Below are positions 3,660 to 41,301 of a DNA stretch of 64,000 nt, piece by piece. Each line of letters begins with the position of its first letter. Position 1 is the stretch's first letter. A model generated the notes under the pieces. That model saw only the letters and a list, made by a program, of their open reading frames with translations, had not been told where the DNA came from and ran no database searches. The position numbers and the translations under genes were made by a program. Source of the DNA: Patescibacteria group bacterium (lineage in GTDB: Bacteria > Patescibacteriota > WWE3 > UBA101185 > 2-01-FULL-41-18); assembly GCA_038064575.1 (NCBI GenBank), contig JBBTST010000005.1:1382-65381 (forward strand). Reading direction: 5' to 3'.

Positions 3660-3662
3660 GCT

Positions 3663-19870: not shown

Positions 19871-20105
19871 AAATCTCTTTGAAAAAATGTTTTGTTAAAC
19901 TGTCATATGTTTTTTTTATTTCTGGGCTTTGAATTTCGTTGCTGGTGTTATTGTCAATGTCTATAACAGTCTTAATATATATGTCAAAACGCTCTCGTAA
20001 CTGAGTTATCTCTTCTTTTGTAAATGGTGTGGCTCTAGTTAACATCATAAAAATGATCACCTGTTTAAAGAGCTTTATTTGAGATTTGCTCAGTCCGACC
20101 TTCAA
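19863..20105 (-). CDS. small hypothetical protein (80 aa)
   Basis: First gene of an overlapping two-gene module at the left edge of the accessory region. Confidence 0.3.
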   Translation of the reverse strand: MKVGLSKSQIKLFKQVIIFMMLTRATPFTKEEITQLRERFDIYIKTVIDIDNNTSNEIQSPEIKKTYDSLTKHFFKEIYE

Positions 20106-20165
20106 ATACTATATATCTATACTACAAAATTTGTTCATCACCGCAAGAGTGTTGACCAAATTTCA

Positions 20166-20232
20166 TGGCTGAGCATGGCTGTCTAGAACCTGTTTCATTC
20201 TCCAGGCTAGAAATGAGACAAATGAAACAGTA
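20166..20232 (+). repeat. Repeat A, a tRNA-3'-end-like direct repeat. It is the partner of repeat B at 24416-24482.
   Basis: About 67 nt and roughly 80 percent identical to copy B in the same orientation. On the minus strand it reads TTCTAGACAGCCATGCTCAGCCA, which looks like T-loop, T-stem 3' strand, acceptor 3' strand, discriminator and CCA. It contains a perfect 10-bp inverted repeat CTGTTTCATT/AATGAAACAG. Confidence 0.55.
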
Positions 20233-20272
20233 TAAAAGGTGTGTTCCAAGTTTATTATGTGTTTTTATTTAG

Positions 20273-20803
20273 TTACGGGGTTGGAACTATCTGTAGTTGT
20301 TGCTCAACTTGCTGATTAGATTCTGTACCAAAAGTTACGAGAAGTTTATCGCCGTCTTTTATCTCTTGAGTAAGTGCATTGTTGCTTTGTTCATCGTTTA
20401 TATAAAACTTTAAAGTTCCACGATTTCCATTGCAAAACGTTTCTTTAGTGCCAGTAGTTAGACATTCAGACGTTAACTTGAACGGAAGTGTTGAAAAGAA
20501 ATCATTCCAAGTTGTGCCTGACTTTTTAACCTGAACTATATTTGGATTACTTGCTTCAATATACGAATCTTGAGAGAGGTTGTGATACATGCTTGCAGTA
20601 AAAATACGAAAAGTTCCGTTGGTAAAGATCGCAAAAGACGCCTTGATATCGGTAATTGGAGTTGACGTATTCTCTGTAGCTTCCATAGAGGCCCTATCTT
20701 TGGGTAAAGATGACTCAGGCGCCGGTTGTTTATTCGAAAAAAAGTAGAATGCAAAAAGAATTACTAGGATAACTATTCCACTAATACCAATAATTTTACT
20801 CAT
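20273..20803 (-). CDS. secreted hypothetical protein with a signal anchor
   Basis: 176 aa with an N-terminal hydrophobic helix. No domain recognised. Confidence 0.4.
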   Translation of the reverse strand: MSKIIGISGIVILVILFAFYFFSNKQPAPESSLPKDRASMEATENTSTPITDIKASFAIFTNGTFRIFTASMYHNLSQDSYIEASNPNIVQVKKSGTTWNDFFSTLPFKLTSECLTTGTKETFCNGNRGTLKFYINDEQSNNALTQEIKDGDKLLVTFGTESNQQVEQQLQIVPTP

Positions 20804-20837
20804 ACCTTAATAATATCCTATTTAGAATATATTCGAA

Positions 20838-21395
20838 TCAATATTTTTCATCTTGAACAAAGCGTAGAGCTACAGAATTCATGCAATACCTTTTACCAGT
20901 TGGTTCTGGCCCATCATCGAAGACATGACCCAGATGTCCTCCACAAGTATCTAATACTTCAATTCTATCGTCCCCTAAACCTGTTTCTTTCCTAAGAACA
21001 ATCGCGTTTTCATCAATTGGAGCCCAAAAACTAGGCCAACCAGTACCTGAATCATATTTTTGTTCTGATCGAAAAAGTGGTTTATCACAGCCAACACTGT
21101 AGTATGTTCCTTTTCGTTTTTCATTGTTCAATTCACCTGTAAACGGTATTTCAGTTCCTGCCTCGCGCAGTACGCGATATTGCTCAGGATTTAATATCTT
21201 TTTCCACTCCATGTCCGTTTTTTGCTTATCAGGATCAAAATTACCTGAGATAATCTGACTTGTTGTATGTTGCGGAGATGAAGTCTTTGGCAAAGCATTT
21301 TCTTGTAGACGGCTTATTAAAATTACTGCTCCTACCAAAAGAACTATTAAGGTGATGTGAAGAAATCCATTTTTGTGATTAGAATGTGTGATCAT
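20838..21395 (-). CDS. msrB: peptide-methionine (R)-S-oxide reductase MsrB, membrane-anchored and extracytoplasmic
   Basis: The SelR/MsrB core is GTYYSVGCDKPLF...GWPSFW...HLGHVFDDGP...RYCMNS, with CxxC zinc ligands. An N-terminal TM helix is present. Confidence 0.8.
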   Translation of the reverse strand: MITHSNHKNGFLHITLIVLLVGAVILISRLQENALPKTSSPQHTTSQIISGNFDPDKQKTDMEWKKILNPEQYRVLREAGTEIPFTGELNNEKRKGTYYSVGCDKPLFRSEQKYDSGTGWPSFWAPIDENAIVLRKETGLGDDRIEVLDTCGGHLGHVFDDGPEPTGKRYCMNSVALRFVQDEKY

Positions 21396-21403
21396 TATCT
21401 AAA

Positions 21404-23131
21404 TTACCCAAAAGTAAATGCAAACACTTCAGTATTATCATCTTCAAACTCTAGTCTAAGTATATGTCTACCAGGTGCAGATAGGTTAATGAGTTTGTAG
21501 AGTGTATCTTTATCAACCGTCACCACACCGTTTATATTATGCTCTCCAAAATCTTGCATCTTGCCATCTAGATATACCTTTACTTTAGCAGGTGTTCCCT
21601 TCGTGCGCATAACTAAAAATACTTCTTTTGAATCAAAATTAAGTGTAAGCGTTGATCCTTTCTGGGGACTAGCATACTCTTCCATCACATTCCAACTACC
21701 TTCGAATGCGAATTCATTAGTCCCTATATTTGTTGGTGTCGAGTATGTACTTATTGTATTTTCCTTAATAGTTTCAGGTGAAGCAAAATGCTCAATTCTT
21801 CCATAGCCTAAATATAATTCTGGTGTTCTTGCCTGTATCTGATAAGTTGGATTATTTATTTCTAAAGATACATCAGTTGCCCCAGCCTCTTTTAAAAGCT
21901 CTTGAATTACCTTTTCGCTTTCGTCATACTCTCCCTCTCCAAAATGTGTGTAGCGTATATAGCCTTCTTTGTCGATAAAGTACTTAGCTGGCCAGTAACG
22001 ATTGTTATATGCTTTCCATGTAGAAAAATCATTGTCCTGAACAATTGGATAAGTAAGCTTGAAATCTTTGATTGCCTGGGCAACATTTTTCTCACTTTTT
22101 TCAAACTCAAATTCTGGGGCGTGCACACCTATAATAACTAAGCCCTTATCTTTATACTTCTCATTCCAATCTTTAAGATACGGCAGAGTTCTTTGACAGT
22201 TAATACATGAGTACGTCCAGAAATCGATAATAACAACCTTTCCTTTTAGTTGTTCAAGTGTCAGTGGTTCGCTGTTAAACCATATACCTCCTGCAATAAT
22301 TTCTGATGCCTTTACACCTTTATTATTAAGTAGCTTAAACATCGGTTTACCCATATCCTCTTTTTTAATTTCGTTGGTAGATTTTTTATCTAATTGCTCT
22401 CGGATCAATTCATTATCTTCAAATTTAGTAAGACCTGTGCCATATTGAGGAAAAGTGTTTAGGATATATGTTTGGAATCTACGATCCACATTAAAAAATA
22501 TTCCTATGGCCGTTATAATCATTATTATTCCAAACAGTTTTTGTATTTGACCTAAGTTTGAGAGTAGCCATGGTACCCGCCTAAGTGCATTTTGACCGCC
22601 TAAAATAATCAAAAACATAGGAATAGCTGTTCCAAGAGAATAAGCGAGAGTGATTAAGAAAGCATCAAGTGTGACAGTACCCGTTATAGCAAGAGATATT
22701 ACAGAAGCAAGGATTGGCCCAACACAGGGAGTCCAGAGTAGCCCAATAGACAAACCAATTATTAAACCTCCCCTAAAGCCAGTTTTACCTTGGTTATTGG
22801 GCATACCGCTCGAAAGTTTAGAAAATAAGTTTTCAATTACTAACTGGAATTTTGGAATAAGTAAAGACAGTCCAAAACCGGCGACAACAAGTATAGAAAC
22901 TAACCTAAGCGTTTCTGCAGGAATTCCACTGATGCGTACAATGGTAGAAAGAAAAAGCGTAAAGAAAGTAAAACTAAGGATAAATCCAACAACTACGCCA
23001 ATTGGGCGAGACTTCCCTGTATTAATACCACCGACACTTGATGTGAGAATAATTGGCAATACAGGGAGAATACATGGTGAAAGTACCGTTATAATACCTG
23101 CTAAAAATGCAAATGCTAAAAGTAATATCAT
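21404..23131 (-). CDS. CcdA/DsbD-like transmembrane electron transporter fused to a TlpA/ResA-like thioredoxin domain
   Basis: 575 aa. The N-terminal polytopic region carries the two conserved Cys of CcdA/DsbD-beta. The C-terminal periplasmic domain has a WTYSCINCQ thioredoxin-fold active site. Confidence 0.7.
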   Translation of the reverse strand: MILLLAFAFLAGIITVLSPCILPVLPIILTSSVGGINTGKSRPIGVVVGFILSFTFFTLFLSTIVRISGIPAETLRLVSILVVAGFGLSLLIPKFQLVIENLFSKLSSGMPNNQGKTGFRGGLIIGLSIGLLWTPCVGPILASVISLAITGTVTLDAFLITLAYSLGTAIPMFLIILGGQNALRRVPWLLSNLGQIQKLFGIIMIITAIGIFFNVDRRFQTYILNTFPQYGTGLTKFEDNELIREQLDKKSTNEIKKEDMGKPMFKLLNNKGVKASEIIAGGIWFNSEPLTLEQLKGKVVIIDFWTYSCINCQRTLPYLKDWNEKYKDKGLVIIGVHAPEFEFEKSEKNVAQAIKDFKLTYPIVQDNDFSTWKAYNNRYWPAKYFIDKEGYIRYTHFGEGEYDESEKVIQELLKEAGATDVSLEINNPTYQIQARTPELYLGYGRIEHFASPETIKENTISTYSTPTNIGTNEFAFEGSWNVMEEYASPQKGSTLTLNFDSKEVFLVMRTKGTPAKVKVYLDGKMQDFGEHNINGVVTVDKDTLYKLINLSAPGRHILRLEFEDDNTEVFAFTFG

Positions 23132-23134
23132 AGA

Positions 23135-23677
23135 TCACTTAATATTAGAAAGTAATTCGGTTATTTTTCCACCGTTCCATTTTGTAAGCTCGTTACCCTG
23201 TTCATCTATTTGGACAAAGGTATGTTGGTAAGTAATACCATATTTTTTAGCAAGATTTTTTTCGTCTTGATCAGTTTCAGGATCATTGTAATTTACTCTA
23301 ATAACTGTAACATCTTCTGGAATACTAGATTCATCTTCTTTGAAGCTTACATCTGCAGGTTTACATGTAGGACACCAGGATGCATAAAAAAATAAAACCC
23401 TTCGACTTGTTGCTGAACCGTCAAGTACCTCTTTACTGTACATTGCATATCGTGACTTGTTTATTTTGTTTTCCATCATTTTTTCCTCAATATCTTCAGC
23501 GTCTTTTTTCATCATGGAATTTTCTGTCTCTTTTTCTGTAGGTTCTGTTACCATCGTAGTTTCTTTTGTCTTCTCCATAGAACTTTCGTTTGATGTGTTT
23601 CGAGAAACAAAATAGAATACTAATCCTGCAACTACTACAAAACTTACTATTAAAATATTTTTTATTGAATTTTTCAT
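23135..23677 (-). CDS. secreted thioredoxin-like protein
   Basis: 180 aa with a signal anchor and a WCPTCK (CxxC) thioredoxin active site. Confidence 0.6.
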   Translation of the reverse strand: MKNSIKNILIVSFVVVAGLVFYFVSRNTSNESSMEKTKETTMVTEPTEKETENSMMKKDAEDIEEKMMENKINKSRYAMYSKEVLDGSATSRRVLFFYASWCPTCKPADVSFKEDESSIPEDVTVIRVNYNDPETDQDEKNLAKKYGITYQHTFVQIDEQGNELTKWNGGKITELLSNIK

Positions 23678-23744
23678 ATATTTCTAAAATGATCCTCTTT
23701 CTTAAATAAGAATAAAGTAGTTGAAAAGTAATGTCAAGTAGACT

Positions 23745-24098
23745 TTACATTCTGAAATGAGAATAAATTCTTGAGAGTAGTTTTGAAAAAATCATGGCGC
23801 AAAGAGCCATTACTAACCAGATATCAATATTGTGTTGTAATGCTTGTATGGTTATACCCAAGATTAGAGTACCAACACCGACGAGATAAGAGATTCTTCC
23901 TGCCGTCAGAATATGTATGGATTCGCGTTCATCTGAGGACTTTTCTCTAAATAAATATGCAGCGAACGTAAGAAAAGATAAGATAAAACCCACAATCAGC
24001 ATGGATACAACACTATCAGGCATGCTTAAGTTGCCTGGATTAAGAAAAATTATAGCAATCACGAGTATTCCGATAGCACTTATAGTTTCTATTATCAT
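23745..24098 (-). CDS. small membrane protein
   Basis: 117 aa with four hydrophobic segments. Its start overlaps the stop of the XRE regulator (ATGA). Confidence 0.35.
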   Translation of the reverse strand: MIIETISAIGILVIAIIFLNPGNLSMPDSVVSMLIVGFILSFLTFAAYLFREKSSDERESIHILTAGRISYLVGVGTLILGITIQALQHNIDIWLVMALCAMIFSKLLSRIYSHFRM

Positions 24099-24307
24099 AG
24101 TAATTTCTCAATTATAAACAATTTCTCAACTGATGTATTGAAATACTTTGCTATTTTTAGGGCGAGTAGTACCGAAGGAGTATAGTTGCCTTTTTCTATT
24201 GCAATAATAGTTTGTCTTGTAACATCAACAGCTTTAGCAAGATCCTCCTGCGTGACCTTGTTTTTAGCCCTATATTCTTGCACATAATTTTTAATCTGCT
24301 CTGTCAT
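24095..24307 (-). CDS. XRE-family helix-turn-helix transcriptional regulator
   Basis: 70 aa Cro/C1-type HTH (VTQEDLAKAVDVTRQTIIAIEKGNYTPSVLLALKIAKYF). Confidence 0.7.
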   Translation of the reverse strand: MTEQIKNYVQEYRAKNKVTQEDLAKAVDVTRQTIIAIEKGNYTPSVLLALKIAKYFNTSVEKLFIIEKLL

Positions 24308-24415
24308 TGCTTTTGTATTTTAACACTTTGGTTCGAAATGAAGATATTAGGATAGAGTTTTTATCAAGCCGTTGTAATGTATTCGAATGAGATGGGTCGC
24401 TTAGGGTGCTACTTT

Positions 24416-24482
24416 TGGCTGAGCATGTCGGTCTAGAACCCATTTTACTCTCTAGGATGTAAATGAGACAAATGAGACAGTA
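24416..24482 (+). repeat. Repeat B, a tRNA-3'-end-like direct repeat and partner of repeat A
   Basis: See repeat A. On the minus strand it reads TTCTAGACCGACATGCTCAGCCA. It sits immediately 3' of the Shedu-like gene. Confidence 0.55.
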
Positions 24483-24492
24483 CTCAACTGTG

Positions 24493-25653
24493 TTATAGCT
24501 TCTCACGCGATAAGTGCATAGAAGCATTACCTCTATCTAATAAGTCTTTATATGTAATCACTTCAATACCATGTAGTGCATGATTCATCTTTCTCAGAGC
24601 ATCTCTCTTATATATGTCCCAGTTAGTACTATCGCCAATTAAAATATAGGCATGGGGTTTGAGCAAAGATAGCTCAATATTATATATTTGAGCAATATTA
24701 GGTTCAATTTCTCTTCTTAGCCTATCAACTTCACTCAAGTAATTAATAACCTGTCCTATAGCAACATTTGTTTCTGCTGACCATCGCCATGCATTAGTAT
24801 GACTAGTGTCTTTAATAATAACCTCATCTGATGGGAGTTTAATTTCCAGAATGTCTACAAATCCATCTAGTGTAGGAAATAGGTAGTCGGGCATAATACC
24901 TGTTAGATTTATCTTTGCTTTCTCAATAGGTTTTTGGTAGTTCACACCAAATAACCAGTTATTTTTATAAATCCATTTTTGCCATGAATCGTCACCTGTA
25001 GTTTCCGAATAATTACCGTGTTCTAATCTCATACCGAGTTCATCGATCACATTCTGCTTTTTGCTTTGAATTCGTGCATATGTTAATTTTTGGATTAAAG
25101 TAGGATTTGATTCTGATAGATATACCCATACGTCTTCACCATATCCCGCATCAATAAGTTTCTTAACATAAGCAACTTTATTTTCGTCTGTTATTATGAC
25201 TTTTTCTGGATCAACTATAGTGTAAGAAGTTGCATCAAAATCAATTTCTTCAATACCTTTTATAAAATTTATTAATCCAAAGAAGTTTTCATGACACGAA
25301 TCCAAATCAACTCTTGCTTTAATAAGCTTGTCATCTTGCGTTTCCTTCGAGAAATTGCTAATTGCTTTATTAGAAATGTCTCTTATTTCAAATGAAAATC
25401 GTGGTGTAAACTTTCCATTTTCCTTTTTTATTAATGTAATTACACATGACTTTTCTACCTTAGCGGATTCCTCTAAGACAAATCTTTTTATAAGACCTTT
25501 TTTTGTATTTTTGAAGTACCAAAAACCATTGGTGCCAGTTTTGTCAATCTCAATTGTTGTTAAAGAATCAGAACCAACCACAAAATCTGTGTTTTCGTAA
25601 TCAGGTTCTACCGCCCACATTTTTAGTCGTTTTCGCTGATCATCAGTTAACAT
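24493..25653 (-). CDS. Shedu-like (DUF4263) PD-(D/E)xK nuclease, candidate antiphage effector SduA
   Basis: 386 aa. The C-terminal region carries MPDYLF...(14 aa)...DILEIK, a PD / ExK triad with the spacing seen in characterised SduA. A variable N-terminal domain is typical for Shedu. Confidence 0.5.
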   Translation of the reverse strand: MLTDDQRKRLKMWAVEPDYENTDFVVGSDSLTTIEIDKTGTNGFWYFKNTKKGLIKRFVLEESAKVEKSCVITLIKKENGKFTPRFSFEIRDISNKAISNFSKETQDDKLIKARVDLDSCHENFFGLINFIKGIEEIDFDATSYTIVDPEKVIITDENKVAYVKKLIDAGYGEDVWVYLSESNPTLIQKLTYARIQSKKQNVIDELGMRLEHGNYSETTGDDSWQKWIYKNNWLFGVNYQKPIEKAKINLTGIMPDYLFPTLDGFVDILEIKLPSDEVIIKDTSHTNAWRWSAETNVAIGQVINYLSEVDRLRREIEPNIAQIYNIELSLLKPHAYILIGDSTNWDIYKRDALRKMNHALHGIEVITYKDLLDRGNASMHLSREKL

Positions 25654-25784
25654 AATTTATTATAAATCCTAAAATAGAACCTTTATTCGGAAATTTATGC
25701 AGTTCTATCGTAGATAACTTTTTTACGCGTGCCATAAGGGCATTATACGAGACAGTTCATATTTGGTCACGTCTAATGGAGTGT

Positions 25785-27461
25785 CTACTTATTATCTGTT
25801 ACGCGAGCAACTAATTTCTTCCCATCCTCAGACCAAGATAGTTTTACGCTTCGTTCTGGTTTCCTAGGATATTTCTCTAAAAATTCTTTGTTTTCGGAAA
25901 TTAAATAGACTGTACAGTATGTTCTTCCATCAGGTCTTTTTAGTTTCCTGCCGTGTAAAATACCTTCTCGTTCAAGTTTACCTCTAGTAGCAGGCTGAAC
26001 ACTAAATTCGGACTTAATTTCGTATTCTTTAATCCAAATCTTATTATCATGATCCCAACTTAAAGATGGGATAATACCTTCCTTAATGTTTCTCCAACAA
26101 TCAGCACATCTTAAACCATCAAGATTCCACCATATTTTATTACTTTCTATTGTTTCTCTACATATAGCACAGGTATAGTGACCTTCCGTAGGTTCGAGAA
26201 AAAATCCCTCTGGTTCTTTTTCTAGTCTTCTCTTTCTGATGTTTTCTACAGCTTCTTGTTTGCCTTGGATTTTCGCCATTTGGACATAAGGGTGGTTTGC
26301 ATACTTAGACTTCTTTATAGGGTCAAAGTCCTGTTTCTTATCCTCTTTAACTTTTCCTGCTATTTCTAACAAATCCTCCTCTCGCTCATACCCTTTTAAT
26401 TTGCCAGAGATGTAACCTAATCTGTCACTAAGACCTTCATTCATTAAACGCCAGTTTGTATCTTCTAATTTTGTTTTTAATAGTTTTTGAAGATCATATT
26501 GTGAAGTCCTTTTATTACGAGTGGGGTCGGAATCTTGAAAAGAGAAAGGTACGATAACATGCCTATCAATTTCAGGTTTATCGAAAAAAAGCTTAGTATA
26601 TTTATGTTCATCTAAAATGCTACTAAGCATTGCTTCAAGATCCGCAATACTTAATCTTTTTAATCTTGATACTTTTTCATAAATTGGGTTATCAATCTCA
26701 CGCTTAACCTCTTCCTTTACAAAAGAAGCATACTCGGACGCTTCCATTAGTTCGATTGCTTCTGCTCCCTTTTCTTCATCAAGACAGAATTCACTTCTAT
26801 ATTTTTCAAGTAATGCTTTATCTTCGTCTTCTTTAGCTTTACGTTCTGCTCTGCTTTTTCCGAAATCGTTAACGTCTGTATTTTTATAGCCACAAGATTT
26901 ACAAACAGTTTTCCAAGTTATTACCTCCCCTTTTCTAGTTTGAGAAACTTTTACTTCTTTATTACACTTAGGACAAAGCTGTGGCTTAGATTCGTGGATT
27001 TCTCCGTTGTCGTAAACAGCAGTTTTCTTAGTACATTTTGTGCAGTCGAAAAAGAACAGTACTCTAAGAGGTTTATCTGTCCAATCGTTTTCTAGAGTCT
27101 TAAATGTTGTTTTCATAGCGGAGTTACAATCAGGACACCTTATGTCTTGTGGTTCAGAAGTATTATCGTATTTGTCTTGAAACTTTTGATCTCGGTCTAT
27201 CCACTCATTTAGTCGTGTCTTTTTATTTTGAAACTCTAAACCCTTTTTAACATACAGGCTTACATTTAACATGTATGAAAAGGCTTTATGTCGCTCTTCG
27301 TCTGGTTTGTCCTTTAACTTTTCATCGTTGGAGCTGTTTTGATAGGCTTTCTGGCATATGCGGATATGGTCTAGGCATTCTTTAATTGTGAATAAGTCGT
27401 ATAGATCAATATAGTATTGTTCAGATTTAAGGTGTTTTTCACCCCTATCTTTTTCTTCCAC
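25785..27461 (-). CDS. multi-zinc-ribbon protein of unknown function (558 aa)
   Basis: Six CxxC pairs form three predicted zinc ribbons: CPDC/CTKC, CPKC/CKSC and CAIC/CADC. No enzymatic motif recognised. Last gene of a tightly spaced three-gene operon with 12- and 17-nt gaps. Confidence 0.5.
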   Translation of the reverse strand: MEEKDRGEKHLKSEQYYIDLYDLFTIKECLDHIRICQKAYQNSSNDEKLKDKPDEERHKAFSYMLNVSLYVKKGLEFQNKKTRLNEWIDRDQKFQDKYDNTSEPQDIRCPDCNSAMKTTFKTLENDWTDKPLRVLFFFDCTKCTKKTAVYDNGEIHESKPQLCPKCNKEVKVSQTRKGEVITWKTVCKSCGYKNTDVNDFGKSRAERKAKEDEDKALLEKYRSEFCLDEEKGAEAIELMEASEYASFVKEEVKREIDNPIYEKVSRLKRLSIADLEAMLSSILDEHKYTKLFFDKPEIDRHVIVPFSFQDSDPTRNKRTSQYDLQKLLKTKLEDTNWRLMNEGLSDRLGYISGKLKGYEREEDLLEIAGKVKEDKKQDFDPIKKSKYANHPYVQMAKIQGKQEAVENIRKRRLEKEPEGFFLEPTEGHYTCAICRETIESNKIWWNLDGLRCADCWRNIKEGIIPSLSWDHDNKIWIKEYEIKSEFSVQPATRGKLEREGILHGRKLKRPDGRTYCTVYLISENKEFLEKYPRKPERSVKLSWSEDGKKLVARVTDNK

Positions 27462-27478
27462 TCTTCTATTTTACACGC

Positions 27479-27691
27479 TCAATTAATTTTTCTGAATCTG
27501 TACTTATCTTTTATATTGTCATGGAAATATGCACCGTGGGAGCTAGAATTCATTAAGCTTCGATAAACATTTTCCGGCACATTAAAATATTGGTATATAC
27601 CACCGTCGTTAAATTCTATTTCTAAAGTTGACGTTAAGCCATCATAACCAATGGAGTCTATATTAGATGAAGTTACGTTAGTTCGTTGCAT
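27479..27691 (-). CDS. KTSC domain protein
   Basis: 70 aa matching the KTSC signature SSNI.SIGYD..T.TLEIEF.DGGIYQY..VP..VY..LMN..S.G.YF..NIK..Y. Confidence 0.6.
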   Translation of the reverse strand: MQRTNVTSSNIDSIGYDGLTSTLEIEFNDGGIYQYFNVPENVYRSLMNSSSHGAYFHDNIKDKYRFRKIN

Positions 27692-27703
27692 GTCGTTATT
27701 TTA

Positions 27704-29197
27704 TCACTTCATTTGCTGAGCTGCCAGATAATCTTTAATTACCATGGTTGCTTTACAGTCATCCTCGTTGTAATCCAGAATCCTTTGTAATTTTTTTGGG
27801 TCTTGGTCTTTTAAATACTCGTTATACCACTGAATAGACAACGCTCCAGATGGTGTTTCATCCCTCCATTTAAACCCGAGATATTGGGCAATTTCTTTTA
27901 CTGAATAACTACCTAACGGCCAGTCTGTGTGGGGCAAAATCACATGGGTATATAAATCAACTGCTATTTCCTTATCAAAAAATGCTTCAAGTTCTTCTTC
28001 TGTTACAACATTAGGGTAAAGTTCTCTCATTTTCTTATAAATTGTTTTCTCATGCTGGGAGTAGTAATAAACTGCAAAATCATCTGTTGGTAATGATCGA
28101 ATGTATTCCCAAAATTCAATCCAAGCCTGTTTCTCGGCTTCTGGTGTTGTATCTGATGCTACAAAGGGTACAAATCGTTCACCATTTGGCGATCTTTCAT
28201 AAACTCCGTGCAAATAGACCATTTCTTGCGTTGGATCATCCTCAATATCAAAGTATAGTTCATAAGATTTTTGTGGAAATTCTAGATGTTTGTAAATCAC
28301 TGGTTTTGAATTGCTATTTAGGAGAAACGCTCTTTGCACTATTTTAGTTAAAGTTTTTTCAGCGATACCAGAAAGAAAATTCTTATCTGTAGCTTTCTTT
28401 GCCATAACCTCGGCTACATTTACATTTATAATATCTTCAACGCGTTCAATGCCTAAGTCTTCATTTAGTTTATCCCTTTTACTTCTTCCTAAATAAAAAA
28501 TAGTTGTTAAGTCGTGTGTATTTTTAGCCCATGTTTTGCAACTTTTATACCAAGGGCAGAGTTTACAAATTCCTGCCATTGCAGGTTTGTTTTGTATTTT
28601 ATTATCAAGCATTAACTCTACTTCATTTCTTATTTCATAATAGAACTGCCACCAAGTATTTTTGTTCTTTATACCTATTTCATTTTGAAGATCGTAAATC
28701 ACTTCTTGATTGTGAATATCTATAATTCTAGCTTTATCAGAGTTAGCAAATCCAAGCTTTTTTAGGATCTCCACATAGTGACATAGCTGCACAGCATAGT
28801 GTTTTTTGTATTTTTCTTCACCTTCTTCATCAGATCCTTCAAATCCGCGTCCACTCTTTATATCTATAGGAGTATATGTACCATCCTCATTACTTTTTAG
28901 TAGATCCGGAATTCCTAAAAGATTTTCGTGCATTAATACACCTTGATAAATAAGACCCGTGCCTTTTTTCATTTCTTCGATTGTTTCTTCAAAGCGTTGT
29001 TCGTAGCTCCCTTCAGATAAGTTTGCTAATTGGCCTAATGTAGAAACCACTTTACCTTCGTGTAATACTCCCTTATCCCAAAGCAATTGCACAAATGGGT
29101 TTGGTTCTGGGTTCTTTTCTTCTTGTGGACCGTACTTATCCCTCCACACTCGGTGCGTACATTGTAAGTAGTTGTACAAAGTTGAAGCGGATATCAT
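27704..29197 (-). CDS. TM0106-family RecB/Cas4-like Fe-S nuclease
   Basis: 497 aa. N-terminal Cys (LQCTHRVWRDKYGP) plus CKLCPWYKSCKTW give a four-Cys Fe-S cluster pattern as in Cas4/AddB. Nuclease motifs GIPDLL...IDIKS are present. The C-terminal half is RNase-H-like, as in TIGR03491 proteins. Confidence 0.65.
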   Translation of the reverse strand: MISASTLYNYLQCTHRVWRDKYGPQEEKNPEPNPFVQLLWDKGVLHEGKVVSTLGQLANLSEGSYEQRFEETIEEMKKGTGLIYQGVLMHENLLGIPDLLKSNEDGTYTPIDIKSGRGFEGSDEEGEEKYKKHYAVQLCHYVEILKKLGFANSDKARIIDIHNQEVIYDLQNEIGIKNKNTWWQFYYEIRNEVELMLDNKIQNKPAMAGICKLCPWYKSCKTWAKNTHDLTTIFYLGRSKRDKLNEDLGIERVEDIINVNVAEVMAKKATDKNFLSGIAEKTLTKIVQRAFLLNSNSKPVIYKHLEFPQKSYELYFDIEDDPTQEMVYLHGVYERSPNGERFVPFVASDTTPEAEKQAWIEFWEYIRSLPTDDFAVYYYSQHEKTIYKKMRELYPNVVTEEELEAFFDKEIAVDLYTHVILPHTDWPLGSYSVKEIAQYLGFKWRDETPSGALSIQWYNEYLKDQDPKKLQRILDYNEDDCKATMVIKDYLAAQQMK

Positions 29198-29290
29198 GAG
29201 CGCAATACTCCAGTCCTTATATTGATCTGTAATTTTGATTCTTTCATATACGCATTATAGTACTAGTTAAGTCCGTAGAAACTAGTTGCT

Positions 29291-29704
29291 TTATACCCTC
29301 CTAATTTTATCTATCAAAAACTTTATATAGTAACCTTTGCTAGATTTGACCTGTATGTACATATCATTTAGTAAATAGTTTCCAAAATGTCGTGGTTCAT
29401 TGTCTTGTCGATAATAGAAAGTTATAGGGGCTCTCTTTTTGTATTGGTTAGTTAGATACTCTTTAATGTAGTCTAAATCCTGCTCTCTATTAAACCTATC
29501 TACCGTATTTCTGGCATGTTTGAGGGGTTTTGGAATCTCAGCTTTTTTTGGGATATTATTTTTGGTATTAAAGTCCCAATGTTTCGCACAATTAGGACAC
29601 TTAAAAACACTGCCCTTACTTAGGTTTAATTTTAAAGTAATACCACAGGTGCAAACCACAAATTTGTAGGAATTGTTTTCGTTAGTTTTTATATTGTAAG
29701 GCAA
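29291..29704 (-). CDS. small zinc-ribbon protein. The annotated start is TTG; the frame stays open upstream to 29908.
   Basis: 137 aa with a CTCG...CPNC ribbon. The same frame stays open for 68 more codons upstream with no ATG/GTG/TTG. That stretch encodes a second ribbon, CDIC-x17-CLDC, and overlaps the end of the helicase gene. Confidence 0.45.
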   Translation of the reverse strand: MPYNIKTNENNSYKFVVCTCGITLKLNLSKGSVFKCPNCAKHWDFNTKNNIPKKAEIPKPLKHARNTVDRFNREQDLDYIKEYLTNQYKKRAPITFYYRQDNEPRHFGNYLLNDMYIQVKSSKGYYIKFLIDKIRRV

Positions 29705-29889
29705 TCGCTTTCGAAAAGCGTGTAAAGTTATGCCATGTGTGCTTTCATAGCAGTCTAAGCAATTATTAATAGTTTTATATGGAAACTGTTTGGCAGCAAA
29801 TATCTTATTACAAATATCGCAAGCTCTACTAACGCCATTCTCAAGATCTTCAATTTGAGCGTGTATGTTCTCAATTGTATTTGAAATTA

Positions 29890-32800
29890 TTATTTTTTTT
29901 TTACTATTTCATTAATTCTAGCGTCTAGTGTTGCAACCGGATCTTTACCTATATTAAATCTGTTTATTCTTAAAAAGCTGTAACCGTAGCCTTCTAGAAC
30001 TTTTTGTCTATATATGTCTTCACTGTTCATGTAACTTATATAGTTTGAGGCATTCACATTTTCTAGTTGCGTAAAATGTTCCCTAAAACCATCATACTCA
30101 ACAATTATCTTTTTGTTTTTAAAAATTAGTAAGAAGTCGACTTTATATTCTGGATATGTATATTCTCTAGATAATTGTTTAAGATACTTACCTAAATCGA
30201 ATTGGGGTATAAATTCTATAGTATCCTTGTTGTCTTTATAAAACTTAGTCAAATAGAATATTTCTTGAATTTTAACTTCCATTGGGGAATTTGGATCTGT
30301 ACCTCCTATGATGGTGTTTTTTCCGTTTATCAGTTCATCTCTGTAGTGTATTAGTGCATTCCTAAGCTCACCTTTAAACTCCTCAATTGGTTTACTAAGC
30401 ACAAAATGAATACAATCTTTCGCTCTACTAAACCCTACATTCAGGCGCTGTGCTTTGACATTGTCCTTATTTTCATCAAACAGTACAGGAAATATCCAAT
30501 TAAGCATGTCCTTTTCTTTTGTTGCTACCATAGAATAGAAAATATAATCACGTTCTTCCCCCTGACATGTGTCGAATGTCATGATTTTCAATTTACGATC
30601 ACTAAACAACCATTCCCTTTCCTCTAGCTTGTTCAATACATCAAATAAAAGTGTCACTTGTTCTCTATGTGGAGTTATTATTCCAATAGTTTTAGTGAAG
30701 CCATCTGCCTTTAGTTGCTTAATTACATTAACTATATGCTTTATTTCCAGTTCATTTGTATTGCTATTTTTATCAAGTTTCCCATCATGTTTAATTACAT
30801 CAAACTTAATAACTTCGGTTAGTGGAACACCTCTAATTTTCATACTTTGCAACGTATTATGATAAAAGTATTTATCTGAATAAGATATTATTTCAGGGTA
30901 ACATCGAAAGTGTTTTTGTAATTGACACTGGTAGTTTCTAATAAAACGTGAAAATTTCAGTATTGAGTTCTTAATGTCAAAGTTATCTCTTACCTTTGTT
31001 TCCCAGCCCATCTTATCTTCTCCATTTATCTTTTCTGCTCTAAAAACCTCCTTTATACGTGTTTTATATTGCTGATTGGTTACAGTGCTTGCATTGCCCG
31101 CTTTTACATTCGAAAACTGCTTATCATCTCCTAAAACAATTACTTGTTTACCTCGAATTAGGGCAGGCAAGGCTTGAGATATACTCACTTGAGATGCTTC
31201 ATCGATAATAATTAGATCAAATAAATCTTTTTCTAACGGTATGTATTCAGCATAATCTCTTATTCCAGCTAAAATGCAGGGAAAAGCTTTTTTTAAATTT
31301 TTAAACAGTGCTATAGGGAATTCTTGTTTATTTTTAAGTATAGTTTTAAGTGTATTAACCTCCCCTGCATTATCTTGAGAATACTCGATTATTCTTTTGT
31401 CCAAGAAATAGGTCATTTGAGCAGTTATTAATTGCTCTACAGTCTCAATTCTAGTTATATAGTCATCCGCAGGTGCATTTGTAAAACTGTTTGTTAGCTT
31501 CGATTCTAGATGTTTATAATCAATGATTTCTCCTAATAATTCTTCTGACTTTTCCAACAGAAGAAAATCAAATTCATTTATGTTACCTTCAATATTTATA
31601 TTTAACTCTTTAGCCAGTCCTGGATGTAATTCTATAAATTCCTCCACATACTCAAAGTTTTTGGAAAGCTTAGCTAACACCAAACATGAATTACAATATT
31701 CTTTGATTCTTTCAGTATTGATATCATTTTTTATAACATCAGTGCTTAATTCCTTATCGATAATTTTAAGTCCTTCGTTCTCTAAATAAACAAAGCCGGC
31801 ATTTAACTCGCTTGAGATACGCTCTAAATTTAGTATGTCTACATAACAGAGCAATAATTTTGGATTAAGATTCTTAAGAGCATCAAAGTTAACAATTATA
31901 TTGTGTATTTCCTTTATATCTGTGAAAAACTCATCAAACGCATTAATATAATCAGAATTCTTGTAATTACTTAAAAGCTGAAAGACATTATCAAATGTTT
32001 CGCGTTTTCTACTTACAATCTTAGATTGAATAAAATAAAGTAGGTCATATAAGTATGTTATAGAGTCGAGTTTTTTTTCAGGATTCTCAATATTAAAGTA
32101 GTTAAATGTTTTCTTAAGCTCTCTTGTTAAATCATTAAGTTCACTCTTATTGAAAAAAAAGCCAAAAATAGGTTTACGCAAACTTTTAACATTCTTTATA
32201 TATTTATTAAGCGCATTCAGTGCTGTGTCTAGATCGATGTCAGGATCCACATATAAATCATGTAGCTTACCAAGATCGTTAGAATACTTTTGGTTAAACT
32301 TCAATGCGTTTTGAAAAAGATTCTGTACAAAAACTACGTCACCATAAACATATTCCAGTTCTGAAAACAAGTTACTTTTTAACCATTGTTTGTATAGAGG
32401 CCACTCACTAAGGGCTTTTAGAGAAATAATATGATTGAAGATAGCTTCGACCCGTAATATATGTTTTATAGATAATAAGTTACTTGCCTTATCCTTCCCC
32501 AATACAGGACCTAATTCTCTATAAGCATCATTTGTTTTCTTACCTTCTAGAGAACTAATGATTTGTTTTGAAGTTTCAACATTTTTTAAAAGTTCTTGTA
32601 GTTTTTCTGTATTCTTCTCATTTATAAAACTTTTGCTGTAATTGGCATTTGTGTGAAAAGACAGTTGTTCAAGTAGTTCTTTTAATTTTGGTAACTTTTC
32701 TAAACCTTCTAGGTCTTCGTTTTTAATTAGATCGTTTTCAAATGAAAGCTTATTTTCTAGTTCAAAGTACCTAATAATATCGTCAATACTAATTGCGTCA

Positions 32801-34551
32801 AAGTGCTTAATAGTTGTCTCTAAATCATTTTTTAGCTTAGTAAGTAAGAGATCTTTCTGTTGTACGGTCGATTCTTGTGTCTTTTTATATGCTAGATAAT
32901 GATTCTTTATTTTTTGAATTGTCTGACCTTGGACAATTTTATAAAACTTGTTTCCGGACCCACCTAATCTTAAAATGGGATTCTGAAAATCCTCTTCGTG
33001 CCTAATCTTATTTAATGTCCCCGCAATTTTTTCCTCTACAACATCTAAAGCCTCTTTTTTATCGGAAAGTACAAGGACTGATTTTTCCTCTAGTAAAGCT
33101 TTACATATGATTGCTGTGATTGTGTGACTTTTACCAGTTCCTGGGGGGCCTTCAAGTATCATAAATTTACAATCGGGTTTTTGCAGTGCCATCAATACTT
33201 GTTTCTGCTCATCATTAAGTGGAATTGGACTTTCAACAATAAGCTTAGTAGAGCAGCTCAGTTCCTGCCATTCTGTATCAATCTCATCAATAAAAGATTT
33301 CGGATTTTCCTTTATAAACCCATCTAATAAATGCGTGAAGTCTTCTATAAGTTCACCATCATCGTTTAGTATTTTCTCATAATCATTAATGAGTGCTTCA
33401 TCAGATTTGTCAAAAAGAAATATATAACATTTATTAGACAACCCTGTAATTAAACTTAGTCCTTTTTGCAATCTGGCATCCTGTATATCTATTGTCAGAC
33501 CTAACTCTAAAAAGTTTTCTATTTTTCTTACTATTGTTGTTACTTTATCAAAAAAATCATCTTCACTATTAATATAAATAACTCTTTCAAAATCTACGGC
33601 AAGTGTAGACTTTCTGTTTGATTGGCGATTGAATTCCTGCACTACAAAATCTAAACCTTGTGAATTTACATATATTCTATGTTCAAAATTTAATATAAAT
33701 CTGTCCTCATCTTTTTCTACATGTATAGGCATATAGAATAGTGGAAAAGTTTCATTACCCAAAGATAGCTCAAAGAAATAAAAGTAAATTTCCGTTTTAT
33801 CTATCAATTTACCGTTCCTATATATTTGATATAGCTCGGAAAATAAATCGCTTACAGCACTATTTTCGAAAAACATTGTTAGCTTTGCCTTCAGACTTTC
33901 CAAAGGTATGATCTCTTCTAAAGCGCTAACGATATCGAAATCAACAGCACCTTCTTTTACTTCAAATATTTTCTGTAGTAGATCAGTTAATTGATTTTCT
34001 ACATCGCCAAAAAGAGTATCTATGATATCTGTCTCAAGCTGAAATTTACTGTTTTCGTCCGCCAAGCCGAGATTTTCTAGTGGTTTATCTAAATCTTGTA
34101 AAAATGGGTAGATTAATACTTTCGAATAAGAGCTTTTAATTGAACTGATGCCTTCTTCCAAATACTGATCATACGAATCATTGTACTTAGTTTTGCAGTC
34201 ATAAATGCGTTTTTCTATCTCTATATGTGCCTGAGTGATATCTTTGCTTTTTAATGCTTCAACTCTAGAAATTATTAGTTTTAATAGTGATGTTGGAATT
34301 TTAGTAGTATATTCATTTTTTTTAACTACTAAAGATTGATTTTCAAAAGATTTGGCAAATTGCTTGAGAAGAGCCTGCTTAAAATCAATAAATTTATCTA
34401 AATCTACTGCGACTTTCAAACCATTGTTTGTTTTCTGTATTGTATTTCTTTTTGGCACTCTTCTCTTCTTGAAGTCAGTTTCAAGAAAGTTCATAAAGTA
34501 TTTTGCAACCTCTTTAACAAAGTTGTTTGGTTCAGTGACTGCTTTTGCCAT
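29890..34551 (-). CDS. giant UPF1/DNA2-like SF1B helicase with a C-terminal DUF559/Vsr-like PD-(D/E)xK endonuclease domain
   Basis: 1553 aa. Walker A is LEGPPGTGKSHTI and motif II is IIIDEASQV...VLGDDKQF. A second RecA-like domain is IMTFDTCQGEERDYIFYSMV. The C-terminus, VDFLL...IIVEYDGFREH, has the DUF559 / REase_MTES_1575-type fold. There is a long N-terminal alpha-rich region of about 450 aa. Confidence 0.75.
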   Translation of the reverse strand: MAKAVTEPNNFVKEVAKYFMNFLETDFKKRRVPKRNTIQKTNNGLKVAVDLDKFIDFKQALLKQFAKSFENQSLVVKKNEYTTKIPTSLLKLIISRVEALKSKDITQAHIEIEKRIYDCKTKYNDSYDQYLEEGISSIKSSYSKVLIYPFLQDLDKPLENLGLADENSKFQLETDIIDTLFGDVENQLTDLLQKIFEVKEGAVDFDIVSALEEIIPLESLKAKLTMFFENSAVSDLFSELYQIYRNGKLIDKTEIYFYFFELSLGNETFPLFYMPIHVEKDEDRFILNFEHRIYVNSQGLDFVVQEFNRQSNRKSTLAVDFERVIYINSEDDFFDKVTTIVRKIENFLELGLTIDIQDARLQKGLSLITGLSNKCYIFLFDKSDEALINDYEKILNDDGELIEDFTHLLDGFIKENPKSFIDEIDTEWQELSCSTKLIVESPIPLNDEQKQVLMALQKPDCKFMILEGPPGTGKSHTITAIICKALLEEKSVLVLSDKKEALDVVEEKIAGTLNKIRHEEDFQNPILRLGGSGNKFYKIVQGQTIQKIKNHYLAYKKTQESTVQQKDLLLTKLKNDLETTIKHFDAISIDDIIRYFELENKLSFENDLIKNEDLEGLEKLPKLKELLEQLSFHTNANYSKSFINEKNTEKLQELLKNVETSKQIISSLEGKKTNDAYRELGPVLGKDKASNLLSIKHILRVEAIFNHIISLKALSEWPLYKQWLKSNLFSELEYVYGDVVFVQNLFQNALKFNQKYSNDLGKLHDLYVDPDIDLDTALNALNKYIKNVKSLRKPIFGFFFNKSELNDLTRELKKTFNYFNIENPEKKLDSITYLYDLLYFIQSKIVSRKRETFDNVFQLLSNYKNSDYINAFDEFFTDIKEIHNIIVNFDALKNLNPKLLLCYVDILNLERISSELNAGFVYLENEGLKIIDKELSTDVIKNDINTERIKEYCNSCLVLAKLSKNFEYVEEFIELHPGLAKELNINIEGNINEFDFLLLEKSEELLGEIIDYKHLESKLTNSFTNAPADDYITRIETVEQLITAQMTYFLDKRIIEYSQDNAGEVNTLKTILKNKQEFPIALFKNLKKAFPCILAGIRDYAEYIPLEKDLFDLIIIDEASQVSISQALPALIRGKQVIVLGDDKQFSNVKAGNASTVTNQQYKTRIKEVFRAEKINGEDKMGWETKVRDNFDIKNSILKFSRFIRNYQCQLQKHFRCYPEIISYSDKYFYHNTLQSMKIRGVPLTEVIKFDVIKHDGKLDKNSNTNELEIKHIVNVIKQLKADGFTKTIGIITPHREQVTLLFDVLNKLEEREWLFSDRKLKIMTFDTCQGEERDYIFYSMVATKEKDMLNWIFPVLFDENKDNVKAQRLNVGFSRAKDCIHFVLSKPIEEFKGELRNALIHYRDELINGKNTIIGGTDPNSPMEVKIQEIFYLTKFYKDNKDTIEFIPQFDLGKYLKQLSREYTYPEYKVDFLLIFKNKKIIVEYDGFREHFTQLENVNASNYISYMNSEDIYRQKVLEGYGYSFLRINRFNIGKDPVATLDARINEIVKKK
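29893..29902 (-). repeat. A10 homopolymer on the coding strand (T10 on plus), directly abutting the helicase stop codon
   Basis: Minus-strand sequence is GTA-A10-TAA. The A-run forms the terminal KKK codons of the helicase. One extra A, or a -1 slip, enters the start-less zinc-ribbon frame. Confidence 0.8.
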
Positions 34552-34815
34552 ACAGTTATTTTATCACTACTACAACATTTGGATACTATAGTATAGTAGA
34601 CACTTTTCTACACTTATCAACAGATATGCTGTCACAACAACGAATAGTGCTTGACCTGTGATTTTATTAATGCTAATTTGTATTTAGTTCTTTTGGAACT
34701 TGCGTTTGGGCGCGCACTAAAAATCCCAACTTTATAGATAAACAATCGCCTATAACAGGCACGTAGATACCACTTATAGATAACTAAGTTAATAAATTTA
34801 ATTAATGGAGGTCAT

Positions 34816-36168: not shown

Positions 36169-36538
36169 GCGTACTAAATATGTTGAGGATAAAATACAGG
36201 AGGATAAGGACAGACTCCTAGCTGAATTGGAAAAAATGCCTGTAGTTGAGGTAGCTTGTAAAAGAACTGGTATATGTAGAGCTACCTACTATCGTTGGAT
36301 TAATGAAGACAAGGCTTTTAGCCAATCAGCACGTATAGCTCAAATAGAAGGTATTAAGTTAATAAATGACGCAATGGAATCTACACTAATTTCGTTAGCT
36401 TTAGAAAATAGAAGCATGGGTGCTATCAGGTTTTGGCTTGAAAATAGACACGCTGATTACAAGCAAAACAAAGAGCTAGAGAGGTCTAGGAAGCTGAAGA
36501 ATAATTTTACTAAGCTATCCAGACCGGATATCTATTAG
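36161..36538 (+). CDS. terminase small subunit-like HTH DNA-binding protein
   Basis: 125 aa with an N-terminal HTH (VACKRTGICRATYYRWINED) and a C-terminal RFWLENRHADY, reminiscent of phage TerS (Terminase_2-like) proteins. It overlaps the MTase stop by 8 nt, consistent with an operon. Confidence 0.4.
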   Translation: MPKRTKYVEDKIQEDKDRLLAELEKMPVVEVACKRTGICRATYYRWINEDKAFSQSARIAQIEGIKLINDAMESTLISLALENRSMGAIRFWLENRHADYKQNKELERSRKLKNNFTKLSRPDIY

Positions 36539-36569
36539 TAGATAGCGTTATTTTGTTATAATCACATTA

Positions 36570-36690
36570 GAAAAATTAACAGCCGCGAAAAAAAATCCAC
36601 TGTAAAAAGTGGTGCATGGAACCTGAAAAGGGGCTACCCTATTGGGTTTCATGCTTCGCGGCTGTTACTACAAGGGTAGTCCCTTTTTGT
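36570..36690 (+). other. structured RNA-like element ending in a U-tract (candidate ncRNA / attenuator / intrinsic terminator)
   Basis: It is preceded by an extended -10 promoter, TGTTATAAT, at 36553-36561. An 11-bp outer stem pairs ACAGCCGCGAA with TTCGCGGCTGT. It encloses a CCACT/AGTGG hairpin and a 10-bp stem GCATGGAACC/GGTTTCATGC. A loop segment, GGGCTACCCT, is complementary to the downstream AGGGTAGTCCC, which is followed by TTTTTGTTTG. Confidence 0.35.
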
Positions 36691-36782
36691 TTGTGGTAAC
36701 AATTAGCGAACTCATGCAAAACCTTGCATATATACCTTTGTAGCGTCATCAATGTCGCAGTAATAATTTATAGGAGGTATAT

Positions 36783-39952: not shown

Positions 39953-40054
39953 GTTTATCAAGCAACAAAAGGCAAAAGTACGTTTCGGAAGATTTTGAAA
40001 ATTGTGGATAATATCAAGCCTTAACAAGCTATTCTAGGCTCTGTGATCGCGTTT

Positions 40055-40128: not shown

Positions 40129-40276
40129 CGACTCCCCATCATTTCAAAACACCTTCAAATACCAAGAAGATTATATCATTTAGATGTAACTACTAATTAA
40201 TATAGGAAAACTAGCATTTTCTTCTGGTATCTATTCTAACAATTATATAGTCCGCAAACTTTGCTATAATTTTCTT

Positions 40277-41294: not shown

Positions 41295-41301
41295 CTTTTC
41301 A

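Follow-up and report, generated by a model that had tools for sequence, protein, structure and literature searches.

Two direct repeats in a 64,000-nt stretch of a Patescibacteria group bacterium of the WWE3 lineage (GCA_038064575.1, contig JBBTST010000005.1, positions 1,382 to 65,381; the whole stretch is hereafter called the window) bracket a cassette of envelope redox genes that includes a methionine sulfoxide reductase. These repeats, A (20166-20232) and B (24416-24482), are probably the right-end junctions of two integrative elements stacked head-to-tail 3' of a tRNA-Gln gene. Both end in a 25-nt core that is a mimic of a tRNA 3' end and not a tRNA. The evidence for this proposal comes from the repeats themselves, from the distribution of the core in other genomes and metagenomes, and from the positions at which related arrays begin to diverge.

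Repeats A and B

The two repeats are 67 nt long each, lie in the same orientation with a spacing of 4250 nt and are 84% identical, close to the value of about 80% given in a first-pass annotation of the window. Patterns taken from either repeat half retrieved A and B as the sole copies in the 64 kb, with 0 copies expected from 100 dinucleotide-preserving shuffles. On the minus strand both read TACTGT(C/T)TCATTTGTCTCATTT...GGAGA...GGTTCTAGAC(C/A)G(A/C)CATGCTCAGCCA, and each is composed of a 42-nt accessory module followed by the 25-nt core, GGTTCTAGACCGACATGCTCAGCCA. The core keeps the register of a tRNA 3' end, with a T-loop-like TTCTAGA (GGTTCTAGACC), segments of 5 and 7 nt, a G and CCA, so that it runs from the T-loop to A72-G73-CCA. 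This tRNA-like reading of the minus strand, without a matching 5' half, had been made in the first-pass annotation and was upheld: neither repeat coincides with any of the 12 tRNAs called by ARAGORN and Rfam in the window, a permissive Rfam scan of positions 19900-24700 (E ≤ 10) returned no tRNA match and the 5' half is absent. The T-stem 5' strand is missing from the core, and 0 of the 165 core copies found in 91 loci (see below) belong to a called tRNA.

The accessory module, of about 42 nt, is marked by the words TTTTTATACTGTCTCATTTGTCTCATTT..CCTGGAGA.. and in A holds the perfect 10-bp hairpin noted earlier (CTGTTTCATT/AATGAAACAG), which is real but is kept neither in B nor in most other copies. 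Where a core is preceded by this module (the long form), outward boxes similar to -35 and -10 elements face the core (TTGTCT-18-TAAAAT in B; TATAAT in variants), and an upstream inverted GAGACA...TGTCTC co-varies among the variants. The module may act as a promoter, an operator or a site for an accessory protein.

A number of other identities for the repeats were considered and set aside. A structured RNA was rejected as A folds about as well as shuffled sequence (z = -0.47) and the good score of B depends on its flanks. No known RNA family was matched at the repeats, either at gathering thresholds (window and six loci) or at E ≤ 10 (19900-24700). On inspection, a sigma-54 promoter on the plus strand (TGGC...) did not fit by its GG/GC spacing. 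The core is also without the symmetry and boxes required of an integron attC or a dif-like site. Finally, a remnant of a coding end was discarded because only 2 of the roughly 50 copies first checked (L002 and later L079) run into a long antisense open reading frame (ORF).

The core family and its link to tRNA-Gln

A 20-base pattern from the repeat was searched against 185,579 species genomes and against metagenome and viral contigs. It matched 24 stretches in the species genomes and 67 metagenome contigs, giving 91 core-bearing loci among the fetched public contigs, which are labelled L001 and so on. With 0 matches in the viral contigs, a phage origin of the core was rejected. The titled genome contigs came from Saccharibacteria, WWE3, Gottesmanbacteria and other Patescibacteria metagenome-assembled genomes (MAGs), with the one exception of an unclassified uncultured-bacterium MAG, and the core is a Patescibacteria-wide site. 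Allowing 6 mismatches, 165 copies were counted on the 91 contigs, at most 8 on any one of them and typically 0.45-2 kb apart, and copies on the same contig were always co-oriented. Information content, calculated from 127 distinct copies, is 1.4-1.9 bits at core positions 2-25 except 12-14 and drops below 0.4 bits directly outside. About one copy in six is of the long form (25 distinct examples). Core B has 0 mismatches to the consensus and core A has 2. In the literature covered, from which subscription-only papers were excluded, the core sequence was not found in any paper and no account of tRNA-Gln arrays in the candidate phyla radiation (CPR) turned up.

Genomes of the Microgenomates type, whose tRNA-Gln has no encoded CCA, contain a divergent core, (G)GGTCCAGACCGGTA(T/C)GCTCAGC (for example L104 533-557 and 1401-1425; L102 8526-8550). 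It is preceded by (A/T)AGTTATAA(C/T)GA(T/C)AAAA(C/T), a -10-like box.

ARAGORN called 34 tRNAs in the 91 loci, 22 of them tRNA-Gln (UUG or CUG), all located upstream of cores and on the same strand. The layout of L020 is typical in form of such an array: a tRNA-Gln, then small ORFs, each with a core or a decayed core after it. The window has its tRNA-Gln(UUG) on the minus strand at 40065-40138. The 15.6 kb from there downstream to B hold no other core-like site. An intact and co-oriented target tRNA is therefore found at the island end here, as it is for the 22 tRNA-Gln genes of the other loci; no conserved platform gene adjoins tRNA-Gln. The core and tRNA-Gln share the A72-G73-CCA ending (CAGCCA). 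Over its whole length, the core is identical at 16/25 positions to the 3' end of the window tRNA-Gln and at 18/25 to that of the window tRNA-Ser; identity alone thus does not single out tRNA-Gln, and the link rests on location, on the CAGCCA ending and on mixed arrays. In the latter (L001, L012, L014 and L024), cores stand beside a hybrid site and genuine 3' fragments of tRNA-Gln. The displaced fragments in L001 at 7319 and in L012 at 4865 match the host acceptor, and that in L014 at 6440 looks foreign. At these few sites the repeat is the 3' part of the target tRNA itself, which the core is not. A parental tRNA with the acceptor TGAGCAT, which had been predicted from A and B, was not among the genes called as tRNAs, either in the window or in the loci fetched.

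The first-pass annotation had stated that its reading would fall if the repeat proved to be a widespread REP/BOX-like intergenic element with no tRNA association. The family is indeed widespread but, with tRNA-Gln accounting for 22 of the 34 nearby tRNAs, it is not of that kind: there are two copies in the 64 kb, both in the tRNA-Gln array, and elsewhere the copies are clustered, in one orientation and downstream of tRNA-Gln.

Element ends, exchange boundaries and recombinases

In loci with a large serine recombinase (LSR), tRNA-Gln or a core is followed by a module of about 90 nt, the left end (LE), which is recognised by the words GGGCAC, GGCTTGATAAAA and TTCGAACC. An nhmmer profile of this module found 17 copies, of which all but one (16/17) begin 1-4 nt past a core or the 3' end of a tRNA-Gln, and the next site downstream of an LE was of the long form in 4/4 distinct cases (L010/L082, L057 and twice in the window). 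From the positions of the LEs and right ends, the order in the window is tRNA-Gln/LE1/155-aa ORF/LSR/.../Shedu/B/LE2/XRE...MsrB/176-aa ORF/A/flank. This delimits E1 (40064-24416, 15.6 kb), with the LSR and defence genes, and E2 (24415-20166, 4.25 kb), with the redox cassette and without a recombinase. Their features are as follows.

40065-40138, minus strand: tRNA-Gln(UUG), the array anchor (ARAGORN, Rfam); its 3' end, ...GGTTCGAATCCCTGCTCCCCAGCCA, is the tRNA-side junction
39976-40062, minus strand: LE1, left end of about 90 nt, beginning 3 nt past the tRNA-Gln CCA (nhmmer E = 4.7e-14)
39915-39939, minus strand: fragment resembling part of the tRNA-Gln T-arm, GGTTCGAGTCCCTGTTCC..., contained in the 3' end of the 155-aa ORF (window scan)
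38172-39467, plus strand: LSR of E1, 431 aa, reading toward the tRNA-Gln 3' end (Pfam Resolvase, Recombinase and Zn_ribbon_recom)
24493-38111, no single strand given: E1 cargo (ORF calls, Pfam, PADLOC), comprising a 265-aa ORF, a SHOCT protein, a helix-turn-helix (HTH) protein, a ParB-N4/N6 methylase, a 1553-aa superfamily 1 (SF1) helicase, a 137-aa ORF, a Cas4/RecB-like nuclease, a KTSC protein, a 558-aa zinc-ribbon protein and Shedu SduA
24416-24482, minus strand: repeat B, long-form right end of E1 (accessory module 24441-24482, core 24416-24440)
24325-24414, minus strand: LE2, left end of E2, beginning 2 nt past core B and reaching the XRE promoter region (nhmmer E = 3e-14)
20273-24307, minus strand: E2 cargo (ORF calls, Pfam), comprising an XRE regulator (24095-24307), a 117-aa membrane protein, a thioredoxin (23135-23677), a DipZ-type CcdA-redoxin fusion (21404-23131; DsbD_TM, redoxin and Thioredoxin_10), a membrane-anchored SelR/MsrB protein (20838-21395) and a 176-aa anchored protein
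20166-20232, minus strand: repeat A, long-form right end of E2 (accessory module 20191-20232, core 20166-20190); no left-end module follows A

The gene content of the module of about 4.2 kb between the repeats, six minus-strand genes, is as first described. The suggestion that successive elements had stacked at one tRNA-like site is supported by the succession of E1 and E2 behind tRNA-Gln. The reading of A and B as attL/attR footprints stands in so far as they look like tRNA-3'-like junctions of units integrated at a tRNA gene, but they are not the pair of a single element, both being right ends.

E1 resembles a small defence island (24493-34551), with Shedu SduA (PADLOC 1.6e-80) and the 1553-aa SF1 helicase, which is like MkoA/Hhe/PDC-S37. 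It also encodes the Cas4/RecB-like RNase_H_2 protein, the KTSC protein, the ParB-N4/N6 methylase and the 558-aa multi-zinc-ribbon protein, for which there was no family match. The helicase/ParB-methylase/HTH/LSR core of E1 is common to L096-L098. Since its relatives carry a TerL-like gene and a type I restriction-modification system, the E1 family may derive from a phage or a satellite.

A second partial T-arm-like fragment, GGTTC(G/T)AGTCC(C)TGTT.., is seen about 130-190 nt past tRNA-Gln or the core in the window (39915-39939), L096, L057 and L012. The end of the LSR, or that of the ORF after it, overlaps this fragment, and in L096 the LSR stop is apparently the TAG in GGTTCTAGTCC. The fragment could be a relic site or part of an attachment region.

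Comparison of arrays located the boundaries at which they diverge. L002 (WWE3) and L006 (Saccharibacteria) have in common 3473 bp at 88.8% identity, and in both contigs the match terminates at the last base of the core; by sequence comparison, this block is evidence of recent transfer between classes. In L008 and L011, two common blocks have edges no more than 3 nt from core ends and enclose different cassettes. L064 and L007 have a one-gene cassette of 488 bp in common (86% identity). It ends with a core on both contigs, which diverge 2 nt later; its start directly follows the tRNA-Gln (...CCCCCAGCCA) on L064 and follows a decayed core on L007. Among high-scoring segment pairs (HSPs) no shorter than 300 bp, 9/30 internal right ends, from six distinct pairs, lay within 0-2 nt of a site end in each of the two sequences, against a chance of 0.64% per sequence. 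Left HSP ends were found at a site in one partner only, in 7/35 cases. The core is the exact boundary of exchangeable units and travels with the DNA on its 5' side.

Units between sites (n = 116; median 911 bp) hold a single ORF in 64 cases; 112 ORFs are co-oriented with the site and 59 opposed. Their cargo is diverse and includes methyltransferases, Fic, GNAT, 2'-5' RNA ligase, heliorhodopsin, DHPS/HPPK, a P-type ATPase, an MFS transporter and erythromycin esterase among others. Units that run from an LE to a long right end without an LSR, and which carry envelope thiol-redox cargo as E2 does, were found again in L012 (7532-8000), L002 and L006. The block of L002 (297-3753) and L006 encodes a Trx-CcdA-like 434-aa protein, a thioredoxin (Trx), a YibE/F-like protein, a DUF134-like protein and a glycine-rich 87-aa protein. 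Envelope thiol-redox cargo also recurs in L099, where DsbA/DsbD/CopA lie beside an LSR.

The recombinases were sought by phmmer over 1134 ORF segments (611 kb; window and 91 loci), with tblastn in addition. Three LSRs were found by phmmer (window, L002 and L079) and a remnant in L057 was added by tblastn. Every one of them lies just past tRNA-Gln or a core and reads toward that site. Resolvase, Recombinase and zinc ribbon domains are present in the window LSR, in the L002 and L079 LSRs and, according to precomputed domains, in homologues. For homologues of the window LSR (56-82% identical), a tRNA-Gln was located on the opposite strand 170-2000 nt beyond the LSR stop in 6/6 informative loci; in L110, the tRNA-Gln is 10 kb from the LSR and phage-like nucleotide-modification genes lie between. 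The L002 and L079 LSRs are only 25% identical to each other, and both genes close with WLSM(S/T)V*, whose six codons plus stop are the core in reverse complement.

A similar arrangement was seen among 120 homologues of the L002 LSR, whose last 16 residues contain DSN in 46 cases (background 0.3%) and (W/L/M)L(P/R/G..)(R/G/D/W) in 64; 64/120 C-termini of the family are an antisense translation of tRNA T-loop, acceptor and CCA. The tRNA overlapped by P0245, P0252 and P0260 (L105-L109) is a tRNA-Asn, which also has U1:A72 and G73. In this family of about 530 aa (L002 3733-5328; L079 oriented 3415-5025; P0241-P0360), the C-terminus is often antisense to a tRNA 3' end, reading for example ...WLPRVDSNHEP over tRNA-Asn, and in two cases it is encoded by the core (...WLSMSV*). 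With their C-termini encoded antisense to a tRNA 3' end or a core, the LSR ORFs of CPR bacteria thus commonly read across the attachment junction. The attP and attB of LSRs span about 40-50 bp and pair two half-sites of imperfect symmetry about a central dinucleotide. In size the core equals one such half-site, and its end coincides with the junction; conservation of the other half is confined to LE-bearing units, and symmetry is weak.

Homologues of the DipZ protein of E2 that are 74-87% identical occur in Woese-, Levy-, Gottesman-, Shapiro- and Daviesbacteria. On four contigs, the block XRE/117-aa/Trx/DipZ, with or without MsrB and a 174-aa protein, has 70-78% DNA identity to E2 and lies downstream of, and co-oriented with, a tRNA-Gln at 69 nt (L101), 1.5 kb (L102), 3.7 kb (L103) and 5.4 kb (L104). 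The gap to tRNA-Gln is taken up by degenerate cores or by further cassettes, and the contigs differ in their outer flanks. This would fit a tRNA-Gln hot-spot unit that was displaced by later arrivals. The earlier proposal that the redox module was acquired as a unit agrees with its being discrete, with its own left and right ends in the window, but in these four other lineages an LE or a long right end is not recognisable.

A second array of like design is seen in the window at a tRNA-Phe (ending ...CCCACCA), at 41265-43620 on the minus strand. It consists of a leader of about 114 nt, a 265-aa ORF and the site GTTCGCAACTTCATTCACAATAGACCACCA; a second unit then repeats the leader at 86% identity and, past an SHMT-like 407-aa ORF, the site at 92% identity. 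The leader holds GCCTTGATAGAGAG and GTCGAAC, which are like words of the tRNA-Gln left end. Neither the other fetched loci nor viral contigs contained the site of this array. Elsewhere in the window, TC-rich repeats with a 9-nt period form long runs along the plus strand (53754-55051 and 61825-62166); the minus strand there probably encodes low-complexity protein segments that are acidic and rich in Asp/Glu.

Integration, alternatives and related systems

We propose that each element would consist of a left end of about 90 nt, located 1-4 nt after ...CAGCCA, its cargo, and a right end made of the accessory module and the core. Integration would proceed by site-specific recombination with a crossover at or just after CAGCCA, which would leave the tRNA intact. 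The core would be the element-borne half-site and the tRNA-Gln 3' end the chromosomal half-site, with catalysis by the tRNA-Gln-linked LSRs. Units without a recombinase, such as E2 and the numerous one-gene cassettes of other loci, may have been moved in trans or may be remnants.

Several observations weigh against this proposal. Canonical serine integrases join only attP with attB, and stacking would hence need non-canonical events or composite transfer. The sequence after the core is unconserved in short one-gene cassettes, a poor fit to a serine integrase that needs two specific half-sites. An LSR near a core is seen in only about 4 of the 92 sources. No core was found within 10 kb at the distal ends of LSR elements in L094-L100 and L105-L115, so that the core as right end of an LSR element rests on E1 of the window and the L057 remnant, and the tRNA-Asn-linked relatives of the L002 LSR have no tRNA-like repeat within 10 kb. 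No XerC-like tyrosine recombinase was matched at E ≤ 1, in a screen of limited sensitivity that used a single XerC seed. No excision product, circular form, empty site or strain polymorphism was seen; for E2, strain polymorphism was discarded as an avenue since the contigs with the exact MsrB protein of the window all share its layout, with identical neighbours. The GC content of the island equals that of its flanks, with no compositional anomaly. Taken with the lack of a recognisable LE or long right end in L101-L104, this unremarkable GC content means that the redox block could be an old resident near tRNA-Gln.

The alternative closest to our proposal, with which it overlaps, takes the small cassettes as the primary mobile units of an integron-like system. 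The core would then be the counterpart of attC and the tRNA-Gln 3' end that of attI, and one-gene cassettes, most of them promoterless, would be shuffled by an LSR or some unseen recombinase that works in trans. The 116 units (median 911 bp, 64 single-ORF, orientation 112 to 59), start codons 3-12 nt past the preceding core, the diversity of the cargo and the retention of the site by the 5'-side cassette are all as such a system would have them, as are the exchange of cassettes between the same flanks in L008 and L011 and the exact junctions of L064 and L007. Yet neither an integron integrase nor a tyrosine recombinase was seen in the single-seed XerC screen with its limited sensitivity, the core is without the imperfect palindrome of attC and the GTTRRRY box, the orientation bias of about 65% is far below that of integrons, no conserved platform gene stands beside tRNA-Gln, and decayed arrays of full elements could look alike. 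We regard this alternative as possible, though not as the one to be preferred. With similar reserve, we raise the broader idea of an undescribed integron-like gene-capture system common to Patescibacteria, in which the 3' end of tRNA-Gln, and perhaps also of tRNA-Phe, would be the capture site, the core a portable cassette site, and LSRs ending in the site would move elements and cassettes between classes.

Other explanations of the repeats account for less of the data. If the tRNA-Gln gene and the cores were portable homology anchors, short homologous patches for RecA-dependent exchange after DNA uptake, no dedicated recombinase would be required, the near invariance of the core across classes and the termination of exchange blocks at cores would be expected, and so would the lack of a nearby recombinase in most arrays. 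A length of 25 nt is, however, at the lower limit for homologous recombination, and the one-sided retention of the site, its single orientation, its tRNA-like register and the LSR stop codons inside the core are left unexplained; we consider such anchors improbable. The repeat as an expression signal, be it a shared promoter/operator or an mRNA 3'-end/processing element, draws on the TTGTCT-17/18-TA(A/T)AAT-like boxes of the long form that face the core, on the many variants with TATAAT 8-14 nt upstream of the core, on a modest enrichment of strong -10-like boxes upstream (28/127, against 16 and 12 in control windows) and on cores often lying 0-40 nt after a co-oriented stop codon. It does not explain the tRNA-Gln link, the breakpoints at the core or the all-antisense neighbours in L002 and L006, there was no Rfam match, the folding of A is not significant, and mobile elements commonly have outward promoters at their ends, so that such boxes would agree with an element end as well. 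We hold this explanation to be very unlikely. The classical view, that tyrosine integrases built tRNA islands here and that A and B are displaced 3' fragments of a parental tRNA with the acceptor TGAGCAT, ending ...ATGCTCAGCCA, has its characteristic signature in the true displaced tRNA-Gln 3' fragments of L001, L012 and L014. It appears extremely unlikely for A and B given that 0/165 cores are part of a called tRNA, that a core in place of the tRNA-Gln 3' end would break the acceptor stem, that unit boundaries are at the core 3' end and not in the T-loop, and that the single-seed screen found no tyrosine recombinase in the loci.

The accretion of integrative elements at a tRNA anchor is an established principle, and the arrays have features in common with several known systems. 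SCCmec elements likewise use LSRs (CcrAB/CcrC), insert at the 3' end of a housekeeping gene (rlmH/orfX in staphylococci) without inactivating it, accrete in tandem between short direct repeats and include recombinase-less pseudo-cassettes with accessory genes. The system described here differs in that its target is a tRNA gene, its repeat is a 25-nt tRNA-end mimic found across classes and its units go down to single genes of about 0.5 kb; it is also known from sequence alone. Integrons, too, are built of short, mostly one-gene and often promoterless units of diverse cargo, each ending in its own site, in an array anchored at a fixed site downstream of a strong promoter. By contrast, no IntI-type tyrosine recombinase was seen here, the 25-nt site is conserved where attC is structured and variable, the orientation bias is weaker, and large multi-gene elements are located in the same arrays. 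Tandem arrays and non-autonomous units flanked by att sites are also known from the accretion of streptococcal cis-mobilisable elements (CIMEs).

Islands at tRNA and tmRNA genes of the type catalogued by Islander/TIGER (PMC4383910) likewise have an intact tRNA at one end and tRNA-3'-like junction repeats. Crossover in these classical islands is made by a tyrosine integrase within the tRNA, whose own 3' part forms the repeat, whereas here the junction is at or after the CCA and 9/25 positions of the repeat depart from the host tRNA. The tycheposons of Prochlorococcus, in which 910/937 elements use a tyrosine recombinase and the rest an LSR, offer a further parallel: streamlined hosts, tRNA-seeded islands where integration recurs and older elements are displaced by newer ones, scattered partial tRNAs and degraded elements, and adaptive or defensive cargo (bioRxiv 10.1101/2020.12.28.424599). 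Their repeats are true partial tRNAs, in contrast to the mimic, together with LSRs only, found here, and one-gene cassette arrays were not reported there. By their defining features, the arrays belong to none of SCCmec, tycheposons, integrons or classical tRNA islands. The conserved tRNA-end mimic, its superphylum-wide spread and the integron-like one-gene arrays with LSR genes ending in the site appear to be new.

CPR bacteria, or Patescibacteria, have tiny genomes and their gene exchange is little understood. A 25-nt marker together with a tRNA-Gln anchor would let their flexible gene pool, comprising defence, stress repair and metabolism, be mapped in any metagenome. Position in the array would date the cargo, and transfer between classes would become traceable, as for the 3.4-kb redox block that is 89% identical between WWE3 and Saccharibacteria. 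The system would also offer a family of serine integrases with a short, defined and tRNA-end-like site, and such enzymes are wanted for genome engineering. If A and B are the right ends of stacked elements, the envelope methionine-sulfoxide repair cassette of the window would be accessory cargo and not part of the core genome of its host.

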